A DNA stretch of 24,245 bases. It comes from Rhodospirillales bacterium. GTDB lineage: Bacteria; Pseudomonadota; Alphaproteobacteria; UBA9219. Both the position numbers and the translations under genes were made by a program. Each line of letters starts with the position of its first letter. Position 1 is the stretch's first letter. Below, one piece after another: positions 1,765 to 10,027 of this stretch. The stretch is from NCBI GenBank assembly GCA_015654915.1, contig JAATFY010000182.1:1-24245 (forward strand), read 5' to 3'. The notes beneath the pieces were generated by a model. The model saw only the letters and a program-made list of their open reading frames with translations. It did no database searches and was not told where the DNA came from.

Positions 1765-2161
1765 GAATTCCAAACCCAAAGACACCGGCGCGCGCGTCCT
1801 GATCGCCGAGGACAATCCCGCTGGGCGCGAGTTCATCGTCCGATCGCTGGCCTCCGCTGGCCATAAACCCGTTGCCGTGGCCGACGGGCAGCAGGCGCTG
1901 GATGCCCTCGCTAAGGAAAAGTTCGACGTTCTGGTGACCGACATTGTGATGCCGAATGTCGACGGCATCGCTCTCGCCCTCAAAGCAGTGCGGCTCTTCC
2001 CCGATTTGCGCATCGTCATGATCTCCGGCTATGCACAGGAGCGTATGCGGGCGCATAACCTCGACGCCCTCGTGCATCGCATTATCGCCAAGCCTTTCTC
2101 GCTGGAAGAAATATGCGATGCGGTGAAAGAATCCATCTCGCTGCCGCCCGGCGCCGTCTGA
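1757..2161 (+). CDS. Single-domain response regulator (CpdR-like)
   Basis: Receiver motifs LIAED, VTDIVMP (phospho-Asp), ISGY, KPF; no output domain; overlaps the upstream gene by 8 bp. Confidence 0.85.
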   Translation: MNENSKPKDTGARVLIAEDNPAGREFIVRSLASAGHKPVAVADGQQALDALAKEKFDVLVTDIVMPNVDGIALALKAVRLFPDLRIVMISGYAQERMRAHNLDALVHRIIAKPFSLEEICDAVKESISLPPGAV

Positions 2162-2172
2162 GTTGGCATCTG

Positions 2173-3045
2173 ATGAAATCCCCCATCCGCAAAGCCGTGT
2201 TTCCCGTCGCCGGTCTCGGCACGCGCTTCCTTCCCGCCACCAAGGCGATGCCGAAGGAAATGCTGACGCTGGTTGATCGGCCTTTGATCCAGCATGCGGT
2301 GGACGAAGCGCGCGCGGCGGGCATCGAGCAGTTCATTTTCGTCACCAGCCGCGGCAAAGGTGCGCTGGAAGACCATTTCGACAGCAACAACGATCTGAAA
2401 CGCACGCTGGAAAAACGCGGCAAAAAACAGGCCCTAAGCATTCTGGAATCGACGGAAATCGAATCCGGCCAGTTGCTGTTCACGCGCCAGCGCGAGCCTT
2501 TGGGCCTCGGTCATGCCGTATGGTGCGCGCGGCATCTGGTCGGGAACGAGCCCTTCGCCATTTTGCTGGCGGACGACGTGGTGCTGGCGAAGAAACCCTG
2601 CTTGCAGCAGATGCTGGAAGCGTATGGTGAGGTCAGCGGCAATCTGGTCGCGGTCGTCGACGTGCCGCGCGAGCAGACCAGCCGTTACGGCATTCTGGAT
2701 GTCGAAAAAGACGACGGGCGGCTGGCCAAGGTCAAAGGCCTGGTCGAAAAGCCGGAACCGGCCAAGGCGCCCTCCACGCTTTCGATCATTGGGCGCTATA
2801 TCCTGCAGCCGGAAATTTTCCATGAGCTTGAAGCCAAGCGCACCGGCGCGGGCGGTGAGATCCAGATCACCGACAGCATGGCGAAGCTGATAGGAAAGCA
2901 ACCGTTCCACGGGTTGCGCTTCGAGGGCACGCGCTACGATTGCGGCGACAAGGTCGGCTTTATCGAAGCCAATGCCGCCTTTGCCTTGGCGCATCCCGAG
3001 ATCGGCCCGCAGGTGCGCGGCGTCCTGAAAAACCTTCTCCGTTAA
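2173..3045 (+). CDS. galU: UTP-glucose-1-phosphate uridylyltransferase
   Basis: KAVFPVAGLGTRFLPATKAMPKEML, GLGHAV, GAGGEIQITD. ATG at 2173 chosen as start. Confidence 0.96.
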   Translation: MKSPIRKAVFPVAGLGTRFLPATKAMPKEMLTLVDRPLIQHAVDEARAAGIEQFIFVTSRGKGALEDHFDSNNDLKRTLEKRGKKQALSILESTEIESGQLLFTRQREPLGLGHAVWCARHLVGNEPFAILLADDVVLAKKPCLQQMLEAYGEVSGNLVAVVDVPREQTSRYGILDVEKDDGRLAKVKGLVEKPEPAKAPSTLSIIGRYILQPEIFHELEAKRTGAGGEIQITDSMAKLIGKQPFHGLRFEGTRYDCGDKVGFIEANAAFALAHPEIGPQVRGVLKNLLR

Positions 3046-3054
3046 GGGATTCCC

Positions 3055-4356
3055 ATGCAGATCGTGGTGATGGGTGCTGGTTATGTCGGGCTGGTGTCGG
3101 CGGCTTGCTTCGCCGAGTTCGGCCACAAGGTCACCTGCATCGACCAAAATCCGGAACGCATGGCCGCCCTGCTGAAAGGCGATATTCCGATCTTCGAGCC
3201 CGGCCTTGACGAGCTTGTCGCCAAAAACATGGAACGCGGCACGCTGGTCTTTGCCGCCACTTTGATGCCCGCCATGGATTCGGCGGATGCCGTGTTTATC
3301 GCCGTCGGCACCCCCGCGCGGCGCGGCGACGGTTATGCCGATCTCAGTTATGTTTATAAAGCCGCCGAAGAAATTGCGCGGAGCCTCAAGCGCTATGCCG
3401 TCGTTGTCACCAAATCGACGGTGCCGGTCGGCACCGGCCGCGAGATTGTGCGGCGGATGCATGAGGCCAATCCAGAGGCCGAATTCGACGTTTGCTCCAA
3501 CCCCGAATTCCTGCGCGAGGGTTCGGCAATCAATGATTTCATGCAGCCCGACCGCATCATCCTCGGCTGCGAAAGCGACCGCGCCGCGGAGGTCATGAAG
3601 GCGCTTTACCGCCCGCTTTACCTGATCGAAACGCCGACGGTGCTGACGTCGCTCGAGACGGCCGAACTGATCAAATACGCCTCCAACGCTTTTCTGGCGA
3701 CCAAGATCACTTTCATCAACGAGATCGCCGATTTGTGCGAAAAGGTCGGTGCCGATGTGCAGGTGGTGGCGAAGGGCATGGGGCTCGACGGGCGCATCGG
3801 AAAGAAATTCCTTCATGCGGGGCCGGGTTTCGGCGGCTCATGTTTCCCCAAGGATACGGTGGCTCTCGCCCGTACTGCGCAGGACAAGGGCGCGCCGTTG
3901 CGCCTTGTCGAGGCCACCATCGACATCAACACGAAACGCAAAACCGGCATGGCGGATCGTATCATCGCCGCCTGCGGCGGTTCGGTGAAAGGCAAAACCA
4001 TTGCCGTGCTCGGCCTCACTTTCAAGCCGAACACCGACGATATGCGCGACAGCGTCAGCCTCGATGTCGTGCCCGCGCTGCAGAAAGCGGGAGCCGTTAT
4101 CCGCGCCTACGATCCGGCGGGAATGAAGGAAGCCAAAACGTTATTGAAGGACGTAACGTGGTGCGATGGTCCTTACGCGGCGATGCAGGACGCCGATGCC
4201 GCCGTCATCCTCACCGAATGGAACGAGTTCCGCGCGCTGGATATAAAACAAATGAAAGCGGCATTAAAACAGCCGGTGCTCATCGACCTGCGCAACGTCT
4301 ACAGCCCCGCCGATATGCGGGCGGCGGGTTTCAGATATGTGAGTGTGGGGCGGTAG
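3055..4356 (+). CDS. ugd: UDP-glucose 6-dehydrogenase
   Basis: Rossmann GAGYVG, NPEFLREG, ELIKYASN, catalytic GFGGSCFPKD, GLTFKPNTDDMR. Confidence 0.95.
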   Translation: MQIVVMGAGYVGLVSAACFAEFGHKVTCIDQNPERMAALLKGDIPIFEPGLDELVAKNMERGTLVFAATLMPAMDSADAVFIAVGTPARRGDGYADLSYVYKAAEEIARSLKRYAVVVTKSTVPVGTGREIVRRMHEANPEAEFDVCSNPEFLREGSAINDFMQPDRIILGCESDRAAEVMKALYRPLYLIETPTVLTSLETAELIKYASNAFLATKITFINEIADLCEKVGADVQVVAKGMGLDGRIGKKFLHAGPGFGGSCFPKDTVALARTAQDKGAPLRLVEATIDINTKRKTGMADRIIAACGGSVKGKTIAVLGLTFKPNTDDMRDSVSLDVVPALQKAGAVIRAYDPAGMKEAKTLLKDVTWCDGPYAAMQDADAAVILTEWNEFRALDIKQMKAALKQPVLIDLRNVYSPADMRAAGFRYVSVGR

Positions 4357-6084: not shown

Positions 6085-6864
6085 TCAACCGGCGGAAACT
6101 TTGGGGGTTGAGCCATTCGTTTTTCTCTGCGCAAGCATGATAAGAAGCGAAGTCATGACGCCGGGGTTTGTGACGGCTTCCAACTCTGTGGTTGTTACAA
6201 ATTGTTTGATGTTAAAGTCGCGTGCGAAGACTTCGCGGAAACGGGCTTTGTCCCAGAAATGCAGGACGTGGCCTTCCCGTTTTTTGTCGGTATAAACGGC
6301 ATCGCGAACCGTTTTGCCGTGTACCGTAAGCGCCTTCATCTGTTCGGGATTGAAATCTTTGGGGGAGCGCGCGCCGATGCAAAGGAAGCCGCCGGGGACA
6401 ATCCGTTCCGCGGCCTTAACTGCAAAATCGTCTACCGGTTTAGGGTCCAGAAGATGGATAGTACGATGGGAATATATGGCATCGAAATGTCCCACATGTG
6501 CATCAAGGACATGGGCCATGGTGCCATGCATAAAAGTGACGCTCCCCTTCATAAGTCCTTCGCTGTTTAATTGCCGTTGAGTAGCAGACGCCAGTTCCAG
6601 CCCTTTTTTCGAAGGGTCGATCGCCAGAACCGTATGGCCCGCCGCGGCAAATTTAAGCGCGTCGCGTCCGTAACCGCAGCCGATATCACACAACATAAAA
6701 AGCTGCGGGCCTTTGCCGGGCTGATTGCGGATAGTATCTCTTAAAAGATCCGCTGTCGGGCTGGAGTCATTACCCCAAATATGACCTTCGTCCGCATAAC
6801 GGCGGTCCCATAGGTCCGGTTTTTCTGCCACCATTGATGGCGTTGTGTCGTCAGGTAATGACAT
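6085..6864 (-). CDS. Class I SAM-dependent methyltransferase
   Basis: Motif I CDIGCGYGRD, then acidic LAIDPS, FDAIYSHRTIH; 24 bp downstream of XRE copy 2 on the same strand. Confidence 0.85.
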   Translation of the reverse strand: MSLPDDTTPSMVAEKPDLWDRRYADEGHIWGNDSSPTADLLRDTIRNQPGKGPQLFMLCDIGCGYGRDALKFAAAGHTVLAIDPSKKGLELASATQRQLNSEGLMKGSVTFMHGTMAHVLDAHVGHFDAIYSHRTIHLLDPKPVDDFAVKAAERIVPGGFLCIGARSPKDFNPEQMKALTVHGKTVRDAVYTDKKREGHVLHFWDKARFREVFARDFNIKQFVTTTELEAVTNPGVMTSLLIMLAQRKTNGSTPKVSAG

Positions 6865-6888
6865 TACTCAATCTTTCAAAAAATTACG

Positions 6889-7608
6889 TTATCTAATCTT
6901 CTTTTCTTTGAAGCGCGCCTCTGAAAAACAGGGTTTGGCTGCTTGCCAGAGGACGTTGAACTGCTCTCTATATGTTTTCGCAACCAGAGCCGAACAAATC
7001 ACAACGATCTGCGGCGTCTCATTATCTTCGAACATCATGATCGCCAGCTTATCGCCGTAAACGTAAAACGGAACGTTGCCTATTGCCTGTTGCGGGTTAT
7101 AGCGGTATTCGCGAAATCCGCCGGTTCCCTGCCGTTCTTCTGGCAGGCAGTGAAACGGGCCTTCCTGAACCAGCACCTGAACCTTGACGTTACCCAACTC
7201 TTTCACGCGCCGAGCGTGCAACATATAGTAATCGCCGAGATGCTTGTCGAACTGGCGGTCGTCGAAGCTGCTGACGCATACCGGCTTGTCGCCGTCCATG
7301 CGGGCCGAAGGTTTCTTTTCTTCTTCGTAAACATCGTCCATAAATTTCTTGAAGCCTTCAGCGCCTTCAAACCGAAGAACAGTGTCGCGGCTGAACCGCA
7401 CGCCTTCGTCTTCCGTAAATTCCACATGATGCGCGGCGAACGCCGCCTTGATCTGCTCCGCGGTTTGTTCCTGCGGACGGAAAGTTCCATGCTCGATATT
7501 CTTCACCGTCTCGGGCGAAATGTTCGCGGCCTTGGCCAGCTCGGTGCGGGTCCAGTCGAGGAGGCCTCGTGCGGCTCGTAGTTGGGCGGCGGTGATCATC
7601 TCATTCAA
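6889..7608 (-). CDS. XRE-family HTH regulator with extended C-terminal domain (copy 2)
   Basis: QLRAARGLLDWTRTELAKAANISPETVKNIE HTH; C-terminal VPFYVYGDKLAIMM...FNVLWQAA; alignable by eye with 4358-5053. Confidence 0.87.
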   Translation of the reverse strand: MNEMITAAQLRAARGLLDWTRTELAKAANISPETVKNIEHGTFRPQEQTAEQIKAAFAAHHVEFTEDEGVRFSRDTVLRFEGAEGFKKFMDDVYEEEKKPSARMDGDKPVCVSSFDDRQFDKHLGDYYMLHARRVKELGNVKVQVLVQEGPFHCLPEERQGTGGFREYRYNPQQAIGNVPFYVYGDKLAIMMFEDNETPQIVVICSALVAKTYREQFNVLWQAAKPCFSEARFKEKKIR

Positions 7609-7666
7609 CTCACAACATAAAATTCAGGCGCATTGCTCTGCACGCGTTCTGGTCTCAACTATTTAT

Positions 7667-7808
7667 GGTATACAATTACCGTTTTGGGAGTAACGAGCGC
7701 AAGCAATGCATTACTTTCATTCAACTTCTCTGCCAACATGATTCTTTCCTTAATTATTTATAAACCATAGAAAAGTTGTGTGCAACTATTTTTTGGTATT
7801 TTGTTACC
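7667..7808. promoter_or_regulatory. Two GGTA-N6-TACC palindromes in an AT-rich divergent promoter region
   Basis: ggta-tacaat-tacc (7667-7680) and ggta-ttttgt-tacc (7795-7808); a TATAAT lies at 7822-7827 on the + strand. Confidence 0.45.
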
Positions 7809-7984
7809 ATCTATTGGTATGTATAATGAGGGCAACAAAGTCATCGATATTGCATATTTTAGGTAATAAAAAGGCCGATAGACCAGCAAAATCGCTGAAT
7901 CCCGAAAAAGCCGCAAAGATTGCACACGAAAGCCAGAAATCAGGTTCAGGTTCTTAAGGTTAAAAATTTCAGAGGAGGTTTATT

Positions 7985-8287
7985 ATGATTGGCAGGTCAC
8001 ACAATGAAAACCACGCGCCGATGTCGGTGGTTTCCGTCCTTACCTCCGAGAGCTGGATGCAAAATCGCAATGACGACAAAGCCGCCGCGACGGTTTCGGC
8101 GAACGAACTGACATCGCTCAGCGCCCTGATCGCTTATGTCGCGTATAATTCCGGCGAGCATGAATTCCGCGTCGAGCGCCGCCTTGCCGATCGTTTCAAT
8201 ATCCAGAACGTCAGCCGTCTGCCGGCGGCTCTGTTTGACACCGCGATCCGTTATCTTGTCGACGGTATGGCGCAGGCTGCGGCTTAA
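7985..8287 (+). CDS. Small hypothetical protein, ORF6C-like C-terminus (copy 2)
   Basis: Strong RBS GAGGAGG; RFNIQNVSRLPAALFDTAIRYL parallels ORF 5292-5633. Confidence 0.75.
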   Translation: MIGRSHNENHAPMSVVSVLTSESWMQNRNDDKAAATVSANELTSLSALIAYVAYNSGEHEFRVERRLADRFNIQNVSRLPAALFDTAIRYLVDGMAQAAA

Positions 8288-9399
8288 ACGCCATTCATCT
8301 TTTTTATGATGAATTTGCCTATATTGATGCACGGCTTCTCTATCAAATTAAACATTACATAGCCCGCTAAAAGGGTTGTTGGGCATGCGATAGCGAACCA
8401 AACAAAAAATCTCACTTCACCCCATGATTGATTAAGGTGCAGTCCATTGAATATCCAAATCTTTATAGGATCAAGATAGGTTAGAATAAGAGCGTGGCAT
8501 AGATATATCGAGTAACAGTAAACTCCATACTTTCCCAGAACCCGATTTCTAGTTATCTTGCCAAAAAAGGATTTCTCAGAAAATGACGCAATAAACATAA
8601 CGGCCAGAGCTGCTGTTGCCAGAATGAGATTTGAAGTCAGGAAAAGACCAAGGATTATGAAGGCCAATACATCCAACAAAACAAGAACGGTCCGACTTTC
8701 CAGAATGCCGGTTTTAAACGCAGGGTGGATGCTCCAGTAATATAAAATGATCCCGACCCCGAAACAAAACCAGTGATGAAGCGGAAAGACAAAAGAATTT
8801 TCGGCGGGAACATTCAGACGCGGCGCGGCATAATTCCAGAAGAAGGCCAATCCCAGTGTCATAATGCCAAACCATGTGGCTTTTGATAGATTTGTTACGT
8901 AACAAAAAACGAGCGGCAAAAATAAGTAGAATGTCTCTTCCACAAAAATTGACCAGCCCATGGGGAACAGTTCCGCCTGCGCCCTGTTGCGGTGAATCAT
9001 AAATCCGAAATAGAGAAAGTAATCGGGGAGGCTGCTTGCCACCGTTCGATGGGCCATCAGCATATAAATGGCGTTTATCAGCCACCAGAACGGCAGGATG
9101 CGAAAGGCGCGTCGAAGATAAAATGAAATCGTCGGTTTTTTGTCGATCGTAAAGCGAATTTTCGAGGACGCGAATAACGTAAATGCGCTGATCATAAAGA
9201 ACAACTGCACCCCACGCGCGCCCGCATTTATAAAGCGCTCAATAAAATGAAAGTGAAAAAGATCGGCTGCCTCATCTCGGCAAAATGCCGCCGTATGGAC
9301 GGCGACAACCATGAGGATCGCAATACCGCGCAAGCCGTCGATATACGGACGATGGAGGCTGTTTTCTGTTGCCGTAAACTGCTGGTTATCAGTGAGCAG
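8284..9399 (-). CDS. Acyltransferase family 3 (OafA/YrhL-like) membrane O-acyltransferase
   Basis: YIDGLRGIAILMVVAVH, GVQLFFMISAF, FYLRRAFRILP, WSIFVEETFY, YSIYLCH, IEKP; multi-TM. The frame is open upstream of TTG 9333; a CTG start at 9399 is inferred and uncertain. Confidence 0.88.
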   Translation of the reverse strand: MLTDNQQFTATENSLHRPYIDGLRGIAILMVVAVHTAAFCRDEAADLFHFHFIERFINAGARGVQLFFMISAFTLFASSKIRFTIDKKPTISFYLRRAFRILPFWWLINAIYMLMAHRTVASSLPDYFLYFGFMIHRNRAQAELFPMGWSIFVEETFYLFLPLVFCYVTNLSKATWFGIMTLGLAFFWNYAAPRLNVPAENSFVFPLHHWFCFGVGIILYYWSIHPAFKTGILESRTVLVLLDVLAFIILGLFLTSNLILATAALAVMFIASFSEKSFFGKITRNRVLGKYGVYCYSIYLCHALILTYLDPIKIWIFNGLHLNQSWGEVRFFVWFAIACPTTLLAGYVMFNLIEKPCINIGKFIIKKMNGV

Positions 9400-9403
9400 A
9401 GAA

Positions 9404-9692
9404 CTTCCCCGGTGACCAAGAAGTCAACCAGAAGGGTTTCACCCTCTGGTGATCGGGGAGTTGATAAACCTGCTGTAACAGAGGTCGCGTAAGCCTTTGG
9501 CCTTTCGGCTTGGACATACACTTACGCCTCCCCGACCATAGTCGAGGAGTGCGAAACGGTCACACAAACCGGTTACAGCAGGGGTTATCACGCCCCGAAG
9601 ACAGGAAAGTCCTGCCTCTGCCACACAGGATGCTGGCAAAGGAACGGAAGGTCAACGGAGAAAATAGTGAGGGTTTTCTCGTCTGATAGTCC
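9404..9692. ncRNA. Candidate large structured noncoding RNA or leader, family unidentified
   Basis: Many nested helices, including an 11-bp perfect stem 9469-9479/9572-9582 extended by tgataa/ttatca and cgggg/ccccg, plus at least five further hairpins; no credible ORF. Confidence 0.5.
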
Positions 9693-9716
9693 GCCTTCGC
9701 CAAGGCTTCGGCGGAC
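9689..9716. repeat. Palindromic repeat gtccgccttcgccaaggcttcggcggac
   Basis: 7-bp stem gtccgcc/ggcggac; core related to the copies at 19740-19767 and 19818-19845. Confidence 0.65.
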
Positions 9717-9756
9717 ATAAGATTTGCTAATTCGCTGCGCTCATAAGCAAACCTAA

Positions 9757-9880
9757 TGGAGCGGGTGAAGGGCTTGCCGCGAAGGCGGCAAGTTAAGGTG
9801 CGGTTGTGCGTGGAGCGGGTGAAGGGCTTGCCGCGAAGGCGGCAAGTTAAGGTGCGGTTGTGCGTGGAGCGGGTGAAGGG
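9757..9880. repeat. 54-bp tandem repeat copying the tRNA-Gly 3' end
   Basis: Unit tggagcgggtgaagggcttgccgcgaaggcggcaagttaaggtgcggttgtgcg occurs identically at 9757 and 9811; its first 16 nt recur at 9865 as the tRNA 3' end. Confidence 0.95.
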
Positions 9881-9938
9881 AATCGAACCCTCGTCGTAAG
9901 CTTGGGAAGCTTCTGCTCTACCATTGAGCTACACCCGC
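9865..9938 (-). tRNA. tRNA-Gly (CCC)
   Basis: Reverse complement gcgggtgtagctcaatggtagagcagaagcttcccaagcttacgacgagggttcgattcccttcacccgctcca: cloverleaf, TTCGA T-loop, encoded CCA. Confidence 0.97.
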
Positions 9939-9944
9939 TTATAG

Positions 9945-10027
9945 CTGCTAGTCCTTAGTTGCCAGCGGTTAGCTGATCAATAATTTAAATCGCTAACAAC
10001 TAACCGCTAACAACTAGCAACTAACCC
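9945..10027. repeat. Inverted arrays of heptamer repeats
   Basis: Left: ctgctag tccttag ttgccag cggttag. Right: ctaacaa ctaaccg ctaacaa ctagcaa ctaaccc. AT-rich spacer between them. Confidence 0.7.

Follow-up and report, generated by a model that had tools for sequence, protein, structure and literature searches.

The stretch of DNA analyzed here, which we call the window, comprises 24,245 nucleotides (nt) from a Rhodospirillales bacterium (NCBI GenBank assembly GCA_015654915.1, contig JAATFY010000182.1), and the subject of this article is a structured leader RNA encoded on its minus strand together with the gene that follows it. Reading that strand from 5' to 3', positions 9655..9397 hold a -35-like TTGACC (9650..9655), a -10-like CATCCT (9627..9632) located 17 nt after it, a leader of ~215 nt with a structured core of 171 nt (9446..9616), a Shine-Dalgarno-like GGGGAAG (9404..9410), and the start of an open reading frame (ORF) for a membrane acyltransferase (8284..9399; Acyl_transf_3, Pfam PF01757, E = 5e-24). 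The core belongs to a multi-copy family whose members conserve two mutually exclusive folds and a tract complementary to the Shine-Dalgarno site of the gene downstream. We consider it probable, though well short of certain, that the whole segment is a self-contained unit in which the leader acts in cis as a two-state switch that masks the ribosome-binding site. All features of the element are given on the minus strand, and the window coordinate of a nucleotide equals 9617 minus its element position, the core being element positions 1-171.

The genome from which the window derives is a 1.5-Mb metagenome-assembled genome (MAG) that is 69% complete. BLAST-type searches found further copies of the element in this genome and in 20 of 61 related genomes, at 65-84% identity. 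Alignment A1, consisting of 27 copies, was used to build a covariance model, R1, of 174 positions and 45 base pairs, which matches the core in the window over its full length (176.1 bits, E = 2.4e-44). With this model, five full-length copies are detected in the window's own genome. Within the same family, 31 of 55 genomes carry the element (the maximum being 16 copies in one 1.9-Mb genome), and at E <= 1e-5 it is found in 29 of 151 family-level representatives of the class, a tally that takes in one unpublished genome (G110) on which no conclusion here rests. A pattern derived from the 3' half only was also scanned over GTDB species genomes, yielding at least 118 stretches. Among the pattern matches listed, nearly all are Alphaproteobacteria by the submitters' labels, the carriers including Microvirga, Rhizobium, Agrobacterium, Phyllobacterium, Hyphomicrobium, Sneathiella, Rhizomicrobium, Micavibrio, and many MAGs. 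When applied to 79 of the pattern loci, R1 gave 73 full-length matches in 72 of the 79, and consequently we conclude that the 5' half always accompanies the 3' half. Pattern matches outside the main group, on one contig each labelled as Rhodothermales, Gemmatimonadetes, Acidimicrobiia, Acidobacteriota, Chlorobiaceae, Ferrimonas, and an uncultured Gammaproteobacterium MAG, had no R1 match and were taken as chance occurrences.

An earlier note on this DNA, made from the letters of the sequence, had described 9404-9692 as a highly structured noncoding element. The region indeed folds far better than shuffled sequences on both strands, with a predicted minimum free energy (MFE) of -122.3 kcal/mol on the plus strand (z = -5.4) and -136.3 kcal/mol on the minus strand (z = -6.75), and its structure is conserved among homologues. 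In alignment A2 (52 copies), 94.7% of the modelled cells are standard base pairs, compared to 40-50% when the pairing partners are slid by 1-3 columns, and 37 of the 45 pairs show changes on both sides. Alignment A3, which consists of 73 further copies obtained from the pattern scan, gives 95.4% paired cells and changes on both sides in 30 of the 45 pairs. The earlier note had left the strand ambiguous and held that G-U pairs favor the plus strand. The counts speak for the opposite strand: 231 paired cells are G-U and 28 are A-C, and therefore the RNA is the minus strand of the window.

The structure to which the model was fitted, fold A, consists of a long stem, P1-P1b-P2, that closes a junction bearing a pseudoknotted hairpin P3, a hairpin P4, and a branched arm P5/P6. 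It is preceded by a 5'-terminal hairpin, P0 (9600..9616, element 1-17), whose sequence varies between copies. The closing stem is composed of P1 (9593-9596/9456-9459, element 21-24/158-161), P1b (9585-9590/9462-9467, element 27-32/150-155; both-sided changes in 5 of 6 pairs), and P2 (9572-9582/9469-9479, element 35-45/138-148; 9 of 10 pairs), and these three helices are 93.5-96% paired in A2. P2 is hypervariable in sequence and always complementary. P3 (9568-9571/9557-9560, element 46-49/57-60) lies in the region 9549..9571, and its loop pairs downstream to form an H-type pseudoknot (9562-9565 with 9549-9552, element 52-55 with 65-68) that is 91.2% paired, versus 20-70% for slid partners, with both-sided changes in 7 of 9 pairs. 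The P4 hairpin (9529..9548, element 69-76/81-88) is formed by CUCCUCGAC and GUCGGGGAG, and its 3' strand is shared by both folds. The P5-P5b-P6 arm (9487..9527; P5 at element 90-97/123-130, P5b at 101-102/118-119, P6 at 108-110/115-117 of the minus-strand RNA) has a conserved 3x3 internal loop, a 5-nt bulge and a GAAA loop; its helices are 96-100% paired and all 8 P5 pairs covary. Many of the unpaired bases in the alignment are invariant, and the tail of the core ends in CACCAG.

Every helix that the earlier note had listed for 9404-9692 is present and can be assigned within this scheme: the closing stem P1+P1b+P2 accounts for 9454-9479/9572-9597, P5 for gcgtaag/cttacgc, P6 for gcc-tttc-ggc, P4 for cgac-cata-gtcg, and the 5' hairpin P0 for cagga-aag-tcctg, while 9427-9450 is a hairpin P7 located downstream of the core, and 9404-9413/9451-9460 is the Shine-Dalgarno region paired with a conserved CUCCCC tract.

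A second set of helices, fold B, is conserved as well. Its principal helix, X1, is formed by the 3' strand of P4 (GGUCGGGGAG, 9528..9537, element 80-89) and the segment CUCCCCGAUC (9451..9460, element 157-166), which is at once the 3' strand of X1 and the tract complementary to the Shine-Dalgarno site; the same helix is the closing stem of the Rfam family sRNA-Xcc1. The other helix, X2, is a hairpin (ACCU..AGGU, 9468..9485, element 132-149) whose loop is the 3' strand of P2. X1 and X2 together give a Y-shaped domain with a single-stranded ACCA end. Both helices covary even though the alignments were fitted to fold A: in A2, X1 is 91.5% paired with both-sided changes in 7 of 10 pairs and X2 is 94.8% paired with both-sided changes in 4 of 4, whereas slid controls for the two are 36-46% paired. 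X2 is 96.5% paired in A3, again with changes on both sides in all four pairs; for X1 only the outer pairs are informative in this alignment, the inner ones being fixed by the search pattern. The two folds exclude each other, as X1 is incompatible with P4 and P1, and X2 is incompatible with P2. X1 is moreover sterically incompatible with P1b/P2 because a linker of only 1 nt follows the 18-bp stem. Two alternative conserved folds of this kind are the signature of a conformational switch.

Directly 3' of X1 the RNA reads ACCA (9447..9450; RCCA in general), with A in 48, C in 52, C in 52, and A in 51 of the 52 copies, so that stem and RCCA are laid out as at the acceptor end of a tRNA. At the 5' base of X1, G(+1) is found in 41, U(-1) in 21, and A(-2) in 26 of 51 copies, and the window reads AU|G. 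Bacterial RNase P recognizes a 3' RCCA and prefers U(-1) (PMC4919922), and the RCCA and the nucleotides at the base of X1 are, as far as sequence can tell, consistent with these preferences. RNase P may cut at the base of X1 and release an Xcc1-like RNA. By analogy with the phage P1 c4 leader (see below), processing of the tRNA-maturation type could be either a trigger or a consequence of the switch, a possibility that we take seriously while giving it clearly less than even weight.

The CUCCCC(GAUC) tract, which is nearly invariant, is complementary to Shine-Dalgarno sites that are unusually rich in G (GGGGAG or GGGAG in other copies, in place of the GGGGAAG of the window). When the final 17 nt of the core are paired with the Shine-Dalgarno region, the predicted duplex has a mean free energy of -13.9 kcal/mol, compared to -10.0 kcal/mol for shuffled Shine-Dalgarno regions, and reaches -10 kcal/mol or lower in 97 of 112 copies. 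Three segments compete for CUCCCC, namely GGGG in the 5' strand of P1 (4 bp, weak), GGGGAG in the 3' strand of P4 (forming X1, 10 bp), and the Shine-Dalgarno site. In MFE folds of the whole leader, computed for 48 copies, the Shine-Dalgarno site is paired with CUCCCC in 22 copies, with a look-alike in the 5' strand of P4 in 4, and with the spacer in 12. P0 of the window copy is also complementary to the Shine-Dalgarno region, 9603-9609 pairing with 9404-9410 in the MFE structure of the 236-nt leader. We rejected this pairing as a general mask, as over the 112 copies it is no better than in shuffled sequences (-9.0 vs -9.6 kcal/mol).

Between the core and the Shine-Dalgarno site lies P7 (CCAGAGGG-UGAAA-CCCUUCUGG, 9428..9449), a hairpin that is present in 80 of 112 copies with a median of 12 bp and -21 kcal/mol. 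In the remaining 32, CACCAG runs straight into the Shine-Dalgarno site with no hairpin in between. P7 resembles a terminator in a subset of copies (34 of the 80 have at least five U within the next 10 nt). The copy in the window is not a canonical terminator, and a terminator scan of 9200-9960 did not call it. The base of P7 overlaps the last bases of the 3' strand of X1 in 76 of the 80; since the P7 stem reaches into that strand, formation of X1 would shorten P7.

The leader is linked to the gene that follows it. On the sense side, 101 of the 109 copies with sufficient flanking sequence are followed within ~75 nt by a Shine-Dalgarno-like site together with a start codon and the beginning of an ORF no shorter than 30 amino acids (aa), compared to 20 of 109 in the opposite (antisense) control. 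The 114 downstream proteins considered have a median length of 107 aa, 27 of them being 70 aa or shorter; 50 have a hydrophobic N-terminal run and 16 a lipobox-like site. Across the copies they comprise small membrane proteins, lipoproteins, secreted proteins, acyltransferases, XRE regulators, and defence proteins. About one fifth of them have any Pfam domain, the recurrent ones being HTH_3 (4), Acyl_transf_3 (3, in addition to the window's own), Mrr_cat (3) and BamE (2), and the single cases including an autotransporter, an outer-membrane protein beta-barrel, Sel1, a DNA methylase, and a PLD-like domain, among others.

Two protein families recur downstream of the leader in Rhizobiales. In Rhizobium, Agrobacterium, Phyllobacterium, and Microvirga the leader repeatedly lies 5' of one family of ~100-aa single-pass membrane proteins that has no Pfam domain and begins M-x-x-Y-x-F-W-A-D-L-L-x-T-F; the Rhizobiales loci concerned are L152, L129, L098, L111, L117, L157, L154, L133, L153, L119, and L103. 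The second family is ~80-110 aa long and is characterized by RKPKPP...RDRxYxPS.

The acyltransferase ORF of the window deserves separate mention. The conserved motif YIDGLRG lies upstream of the first TTG (9333), and no ATG, GTG or TTG is found from there back to the stop at 9426..9424. Behind the Shine-Dalgarno site, an in-frame CUG (9399..9397) is the sole candidate for a start, and the gene has either a non-canonical start or a damaged 5' end. A retron or DRT noncoding RNA had been suspected from the presence of a 349-aa ORF 3' of the element; this was discarded when Pfam identified the ORF as the Acyl_transf_3 acyltransferase.

At the other end of the unit, what points to a promoter is its conserved position. 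TTGAC occurs at a fixed distance, 52-66 nt 5' of the GGGG of P1, in 31 of 115 copies and in none within a control window. The -10-like CATCCT is weak compared to TATAAT, and close copies have CATTCT in its place. We regard the pair as the putative promoter of the leader.

Combined, these features suggest how the unit might work. In the off state, fold A would form and P4 would be closed, leaving CUCCCC free of X1 and able to mask the Shine-Dalgarno site, with P0 contributing to the mask in the window copy. In copies with a U-tailed P7 the full hairpin would also form in this state, so that transcription would terminate as well. In the on state, fold B would form, and X1 would capture both the tract complementary to the Shine-Dalgarno site and the base of P7. 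The assignment of the two folds to off and on, and the existence of a signal that would set the balance between them, are suggested by this arrangement of pairings.

Several observations weigh against the interpretation of the leader as a switch. Constrained folding of the window copy gives -105.2 kcal/mol for fold A and -96.9 kcal/mol for fold B (-112.3 kcal/mol without constraints), so that fold A is predicted to be more stable by at least 8 kcal/mol, and in none of the predicted states is the Shine-Dalgarno site of this copy unpaired, its main partner being the P0 region. The CCA is base-paired in copies with P7, which weakens the idea of cleavage by RNase P. A strict sigma-70 scan of 9200-9960 called no promoter, the candidate being weak by consensus, and the gene in the window lacks a canonical start codon. 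The sole hint of expression is that 30% of the sampled words of 9250-9760 are present in a metatranscriptome from the same wood-decay sample. The C4 RNA of phages P1 and P7, whose layout the leader resembles (see below), likewise fails to match in detail. Its models C4 and c4-a1b1 miss the leaders at E <= 10 in the window and at E <= 1 in 20 copies, and R1 scores 2.4 bits on the leader of phage P1. There are also no repeats comparable to a2 and b2 of the C4 system: between the 3' end of the core and a point 60 nt beyond the start codon, P2 strands pair no better with their own downstream sequence than with that of other copies (-10.81 vs -10.77 kcal/mol, p = 0.85), and 7-mers (7-8-mers) of a copy's own P1b recur downstream in 0 of 112 copies.

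Comparison with Rfam 15 places the element in a wider context. At gathering scores the window yields nothing but three tRNAs. In a permissive scan of 9250-9950 (cmscan with all of Rfam 15, a 701-nt search), only one match is relevant, to sRNA-Xcc1 (RF02221); it covers 9537..9443 of the minus strand and scores 27.5 bits (E = 0.016). The gathering score of RF02221 is 53 bits, so Rfam would not annotate the match; other copies of the leader score 28-39 bits, and one copy from the window's own genome scores 40 bits. Nevertheless, the alignment is full-length (model positions 1-87) and follows the architecture of the family, in which a closing stem of ~9-10 bp is combined with two hairpins, one internal with a GNRA-type loop and one short, and the 3' tail is ACC. 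The corresponding helices X1, P5/P6, and X2 covary in the 52 and in the 73 copies. Any other Rfam family can be set aside, as the scans at gathering scores and at E <= 10 gave just tRNA and the sub-threshold sRNA-Xcc1. The suggestion of the earlier note that this might be a new noncoding RNA or cis-regulatory class is borne out in that the element is a cis-located covarying leader not catalogued as such by Rfam; it goes too far in that the element has relatives, its 3' half being a sub-threshold relative of sRNA-Xcc1.

The relationship extends beyond the 3' half. RF02221 has matches in 25 of the 151 genomes of the class sample, 5 of them above the cut-off, and in at least eight genomes of different families these matches coincide with the 3' ~87 nt of full-length R1 matches (G054 C39, G084 C1 near 1753.5 kb, G093 C40, G117 C14, G165 C14, G177 C1, G190 C5, and G207 C6); R1 aligns end to end at loci found with RF02221. 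In two genuine Xcc1 loci (70 and 58 bits), a promoter-like TTGACC...CATTCT is present, the upstream half folds into a long closing stem in the MFE structure, and a Shine-Dalgarno site with an ORF follows downstream; the larger organization of the locus, consisting of an upstream complementary half, a promoter and a downstream gene, is thus shared with genuine members of the family. From the coincident matches and the shared layout we conclude that RF02221 is the 3' domain of a larger conserved leader, of whose family the window element is a divergent member.

Previous work describes Xcc1 as an 88-nt RNA, detected by Northern blot and rapid amplification of cDNA ends in X. campestris (PMC2996969). 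It is located 5' of symE in the most widespread Xanthomonas integron cassette (bioRxiv 10.1101/2025.06.18.660453), and in Xylella it occurs in ~385-bp tandem arrays (PMC12189769). This literature regards it as a trans-acting small RNA (sRNA). At one locus of our sample (L069, G084 C1:749745-751817) we observed three genuine sRNA-Xcc1 copies of 56-58 bits in tandem units of ~994 bp, each with the same small ORFs; this array is cassette-like and similar to the arrays reported in Xylella.

The surroundings of the element in the window are as follows. The acyltransferase is at the edge of a sugar-nucleotide/polysaccharide cluster (2113-4356 and 6085-9333), with genes of a kind usual for the modification of surface polysaccharides, namely those for a sugar nucleotidyltransferase, a UDP-glucose/GDP-mannose dehydrogenase, and an S-adenosylmethionine-dependent methyltransferase, and with two XRE-type helix-turn-helix genes nearby. 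On the other side a tRNA-Gly(CCC) gene (9938..9865, minus strand) is followed on the RNA strand by two tandem 54-bp units, 9811-9864 and 9757-9810, each composed of the last 16 nt of the tRNA (ending in CCA) and a GC-rich hairpin. These units look like scars of repeated integration or excision at the 3' end of the tRNA, or like a duplicated terminator module; the 9.8 kb of the window on the tRNA side contain no integrase gene. Between the tRNA-derived repeats and the leader promoter lies a further GC-rich hairpin, gtccgcc...ggcggac (9683-9710), which contains gatagtcc; it may serve as a terminator and keep read-through from the tRNA out of the leader, but no U-tract follows it. Elsewhere, two copies of the leader (L018 and L006) are located within 1-1.5 kb of tRNA genes, as would fit islands integrated at such genes.

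The main alternatives to the two-state switch are that the leader is a ligand-sensing riboswitch or that it is an independent gene for a trans-acting sRNA. As a riboswitch, the pseudoknotted junction of fold A would bind a small molecule or ion, stabilize P1, and thereby decide between masking or termination and expression. The leader does have an aptamer-like domain in a 5' untranslated region followed by a platform of competing helices: an ornate covarying junction of many helices with a pseudoknot and numerous invariant unpaired bases, joined to alternative pairings that involve the tract complementary to the Shine-Dalgarno site and a terminator-like hairpin, and up to 16 copies per genome are what one sees for second-messenger riboswitches. 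We nonetheless think this explanation rather unlikely, given that neither metabolism nor transport emerges as a theme shared by the downstream genes (~80% lack a Pfam domain, the others encoding XRE regulators, acyltransferases, Mrr nucleases, a DNA methylase, BamE-like lipoproteins, and outer-membrane proteins), that the distribution is patchy in close relatives (31 of 55 family genomes), and that the second fold forms a covarying domain of its own ending in RCCA, something that a simple expression platform does not require. Somewhat less likely still is an sRNA gene with its own promoter and with P7 as its terminator, which would pair with distant mRNAs and be a chance neighbor of the genes downstream. 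Xcc1 has been seen as a discrete RNA of ~88 nt (PMC2996969) and described as trans-acting (PMC12189769), and P7 is terminator-like in ~40% of the copies that have it; against this, the orientation and spacing of Shine-Dalgarno site and ORF are kept (101/109 vs 20/109 in the control), a hairpin between the RNA and the Shine-Dalgarno site is missing altogether from 32 of 112 copies, the conserved tract has its complement in the Shine-Dalgarno site of the same copy, and P2, the most variable helix, pairs inside the same leader and offers no conserved seed.

Two further possibilities concern the nature of the element itself. That it is a repeat acting at the level of DNA, for instance a site of recombination or one end of a mobile element, might be suspected from its multi-copy and patchy occurrence, from the adjoining tRNA gene with its duplicated 3' ends, and from the presence of Xcc1 in integron cassettes. 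The excess of G-U over A-C is, however, specific to one strand and hence RNA-like, compensatory changes keep the helices while the sequence drifts, and the element keeps a fixed position with respect to the Shine-Dalgarno site and start codon, all of which makes the DNA-level explanation very improbable. The derivation from a rearranged or degenerate group I intron or a related ribozyme, proposed in the earlier note, can practically be dismissed. It was based only on a likeness of 9537-9572, read on the plus strand, to the 3' end of the Azoarcus tRNA-Ile intron, whereas the RNA is on the minus strand, and neither Intron_gpI nor any other ribozyme matched 9250-9950 on either strand at E <= 10. 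The additional fragments that had been read as group I-like (gaaggt..caacgg and gatagtcc) turned out to be the reverse complement of the -35 promoter region and a part of an unrelated hairpin, that is, the promoter region read on the wrong strand. Nor is the location that of an intron in a host gene: the element is flanked by a promoter-like site on one side and a Shine-Dalgarno site on the other, and the genes that its copies precede are unrelated.

If the leader is indeed a two-state switch, then sRNA-Xcc1, so far catalogued as a poorly understood virulence-linked sRNA, is only half of a larger cis-regulatory device, and Xcc1-type annotations would have to be reinterpreted. The device would be very common, with up to 16 copies in genomes of 2 Mb and an occurrence in about one fifth of the sampled family-level representatives of the class, and would constitute a new class of large RNA switches located before genes for surface proteins, defence, and orphan functions, with a mechanistic link to phage immunity RNAs and tRNA processing. 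A broader proposal, which we put forward tentatively and judge more likely to fail than to hold, is that sRNA-Xcc1 has been mis-scoped as a whole: it would be the 3' domain of a widespread promoter and two-state leader module of Alpha- and Gammaproteobacteria, a chromosomal analogue of the phage c4/CI leaders that has at its end the stem and RCCA of a tRNA acceptor arm and is excised by tRNA-processing enzymes, and its refolding or processing would gate the translation (and often the termination) of dozens of unrelated envelope, defence, and orphan genes per genome, serving as a general post-transcriptional gate for horizontally acquired genes. Cultured carriers in Rhizobium, Agrobacterium, Phyllobacterium, and Microvirga, among them Agrobacterium sp. 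rho-13.3 (L152), Rhizobium skierniewicense DSM 26438 (L129), Phyllobacterium myrsinacearum DSM 5892 (L141), and Microvirga spp. (L107), make the hypothesis directly testable.

The two-state leader can be compared with several known regulatory systems. It is similar to translational riboswitches and attenuators in having a structured, covarying 5' domain, mutually exclusive helices, masking of the Shine-Dalgarno site and, often, a terminator-like hairpin overlapping a competing helix; it differs from them in that no coherent regulon points to a ligand and in that the alternative fold is a complete domain with a tRNA-like end. Type I toxin mRNAs (hok, tisB, zorO, symE) have long structured 5' untranslated regions and are activated by 5' processing. 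Similarly, the leader appears to be off by default with its Shine-Dalgarno site sequestered, many of the downstream ORFs are tiny and hydrophobic (27 of 114 with 70 aa or less), Xcc1 precedes symE, and pairing between the 5' end and the Shine-Dalgarno region is predicted for the window copy. In contrast to those systems, most of the downstream genes are not toxin-like (lipoproteins, acyltransferases, nucleases) and the pairing of the 5' end with the Shine-Dalgarno region is not conserved. An antisense antitoxin RNA was neither seen nor sought.

The closest parallel in layout is the immunity RNA C4 of phages P1 and P7 (RF01695 and RF03163, clan CL00128). The immI leader of phage P1 consists, according to its sequence record, of a promoter, the segments a1 and b1, the C4 RNA, and a2 and b2 at the icd ribosome-binding site. 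C4 itself has a long closing stem and two hairpins; the loop of hairpin 2 carries b', and a' lies in the junction on the 3' side of that hairpin, a junction that ends in ..CAAC and is followed by an ACC tail. The leader described here shares the succession of promoter, upstream complementary segment, Y-shaped RNA, ACC tail, and ribosome-binding site of the regulated gene, and its upstream segment is complementary to the loop of the second hairpin and the junction that follows. In this correspondence, the 5' strands of P1b and P2 take the place of a1/b1, and the X2 loop and the UUAUCAAC junction that of b'/a'. The likeness is architectural only, and homology was set aside given that no statistical match was found in either direction. 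Whereas C4 acts on the repeated a2/b2 at the ribosome-binding site, here a conserved CUCCCC in the closing stem matches the Shine-Dalgarno site; and whereas C4 precedes an antirepressor gene, the leader family is chromosomal, reaches 16 copies in a genome, and is located before envelope and accessory genes. Hartmann et al. are said to have found in 1995 that C4 is cut out of its own leader by RNase P. The CI RNA of phage P4 is an immunity RNA comparable to C4. As a separate observation, an 8-mer of the 5' strand of P1b in the window, UGAUAACC (9590..9583), recurs at 9391..9384, just after the putative CUG start; it is a2-like but shared by 0 of 112 copies, hence peculiar to the window, and may be due to chance.

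Finally, sRNA-Xcc1, which is found in integron cassettes, transposons and plasmids, is the known family that the element resembles at the level of the model itself, the window segment 9537..9443 aligning with it end to end through the closing stem, the hairpin with a GAAA-type loop, the second hairpin and the ACC tail. The unit described in the literature is a trans-acting sRNA of 87-88 nt, whereas the element described here comprises ~170 nt and an expression platform and is located in cis, before a gene, and the Xcc1 fold is just one of the two covarying folds that its sequence conserves.

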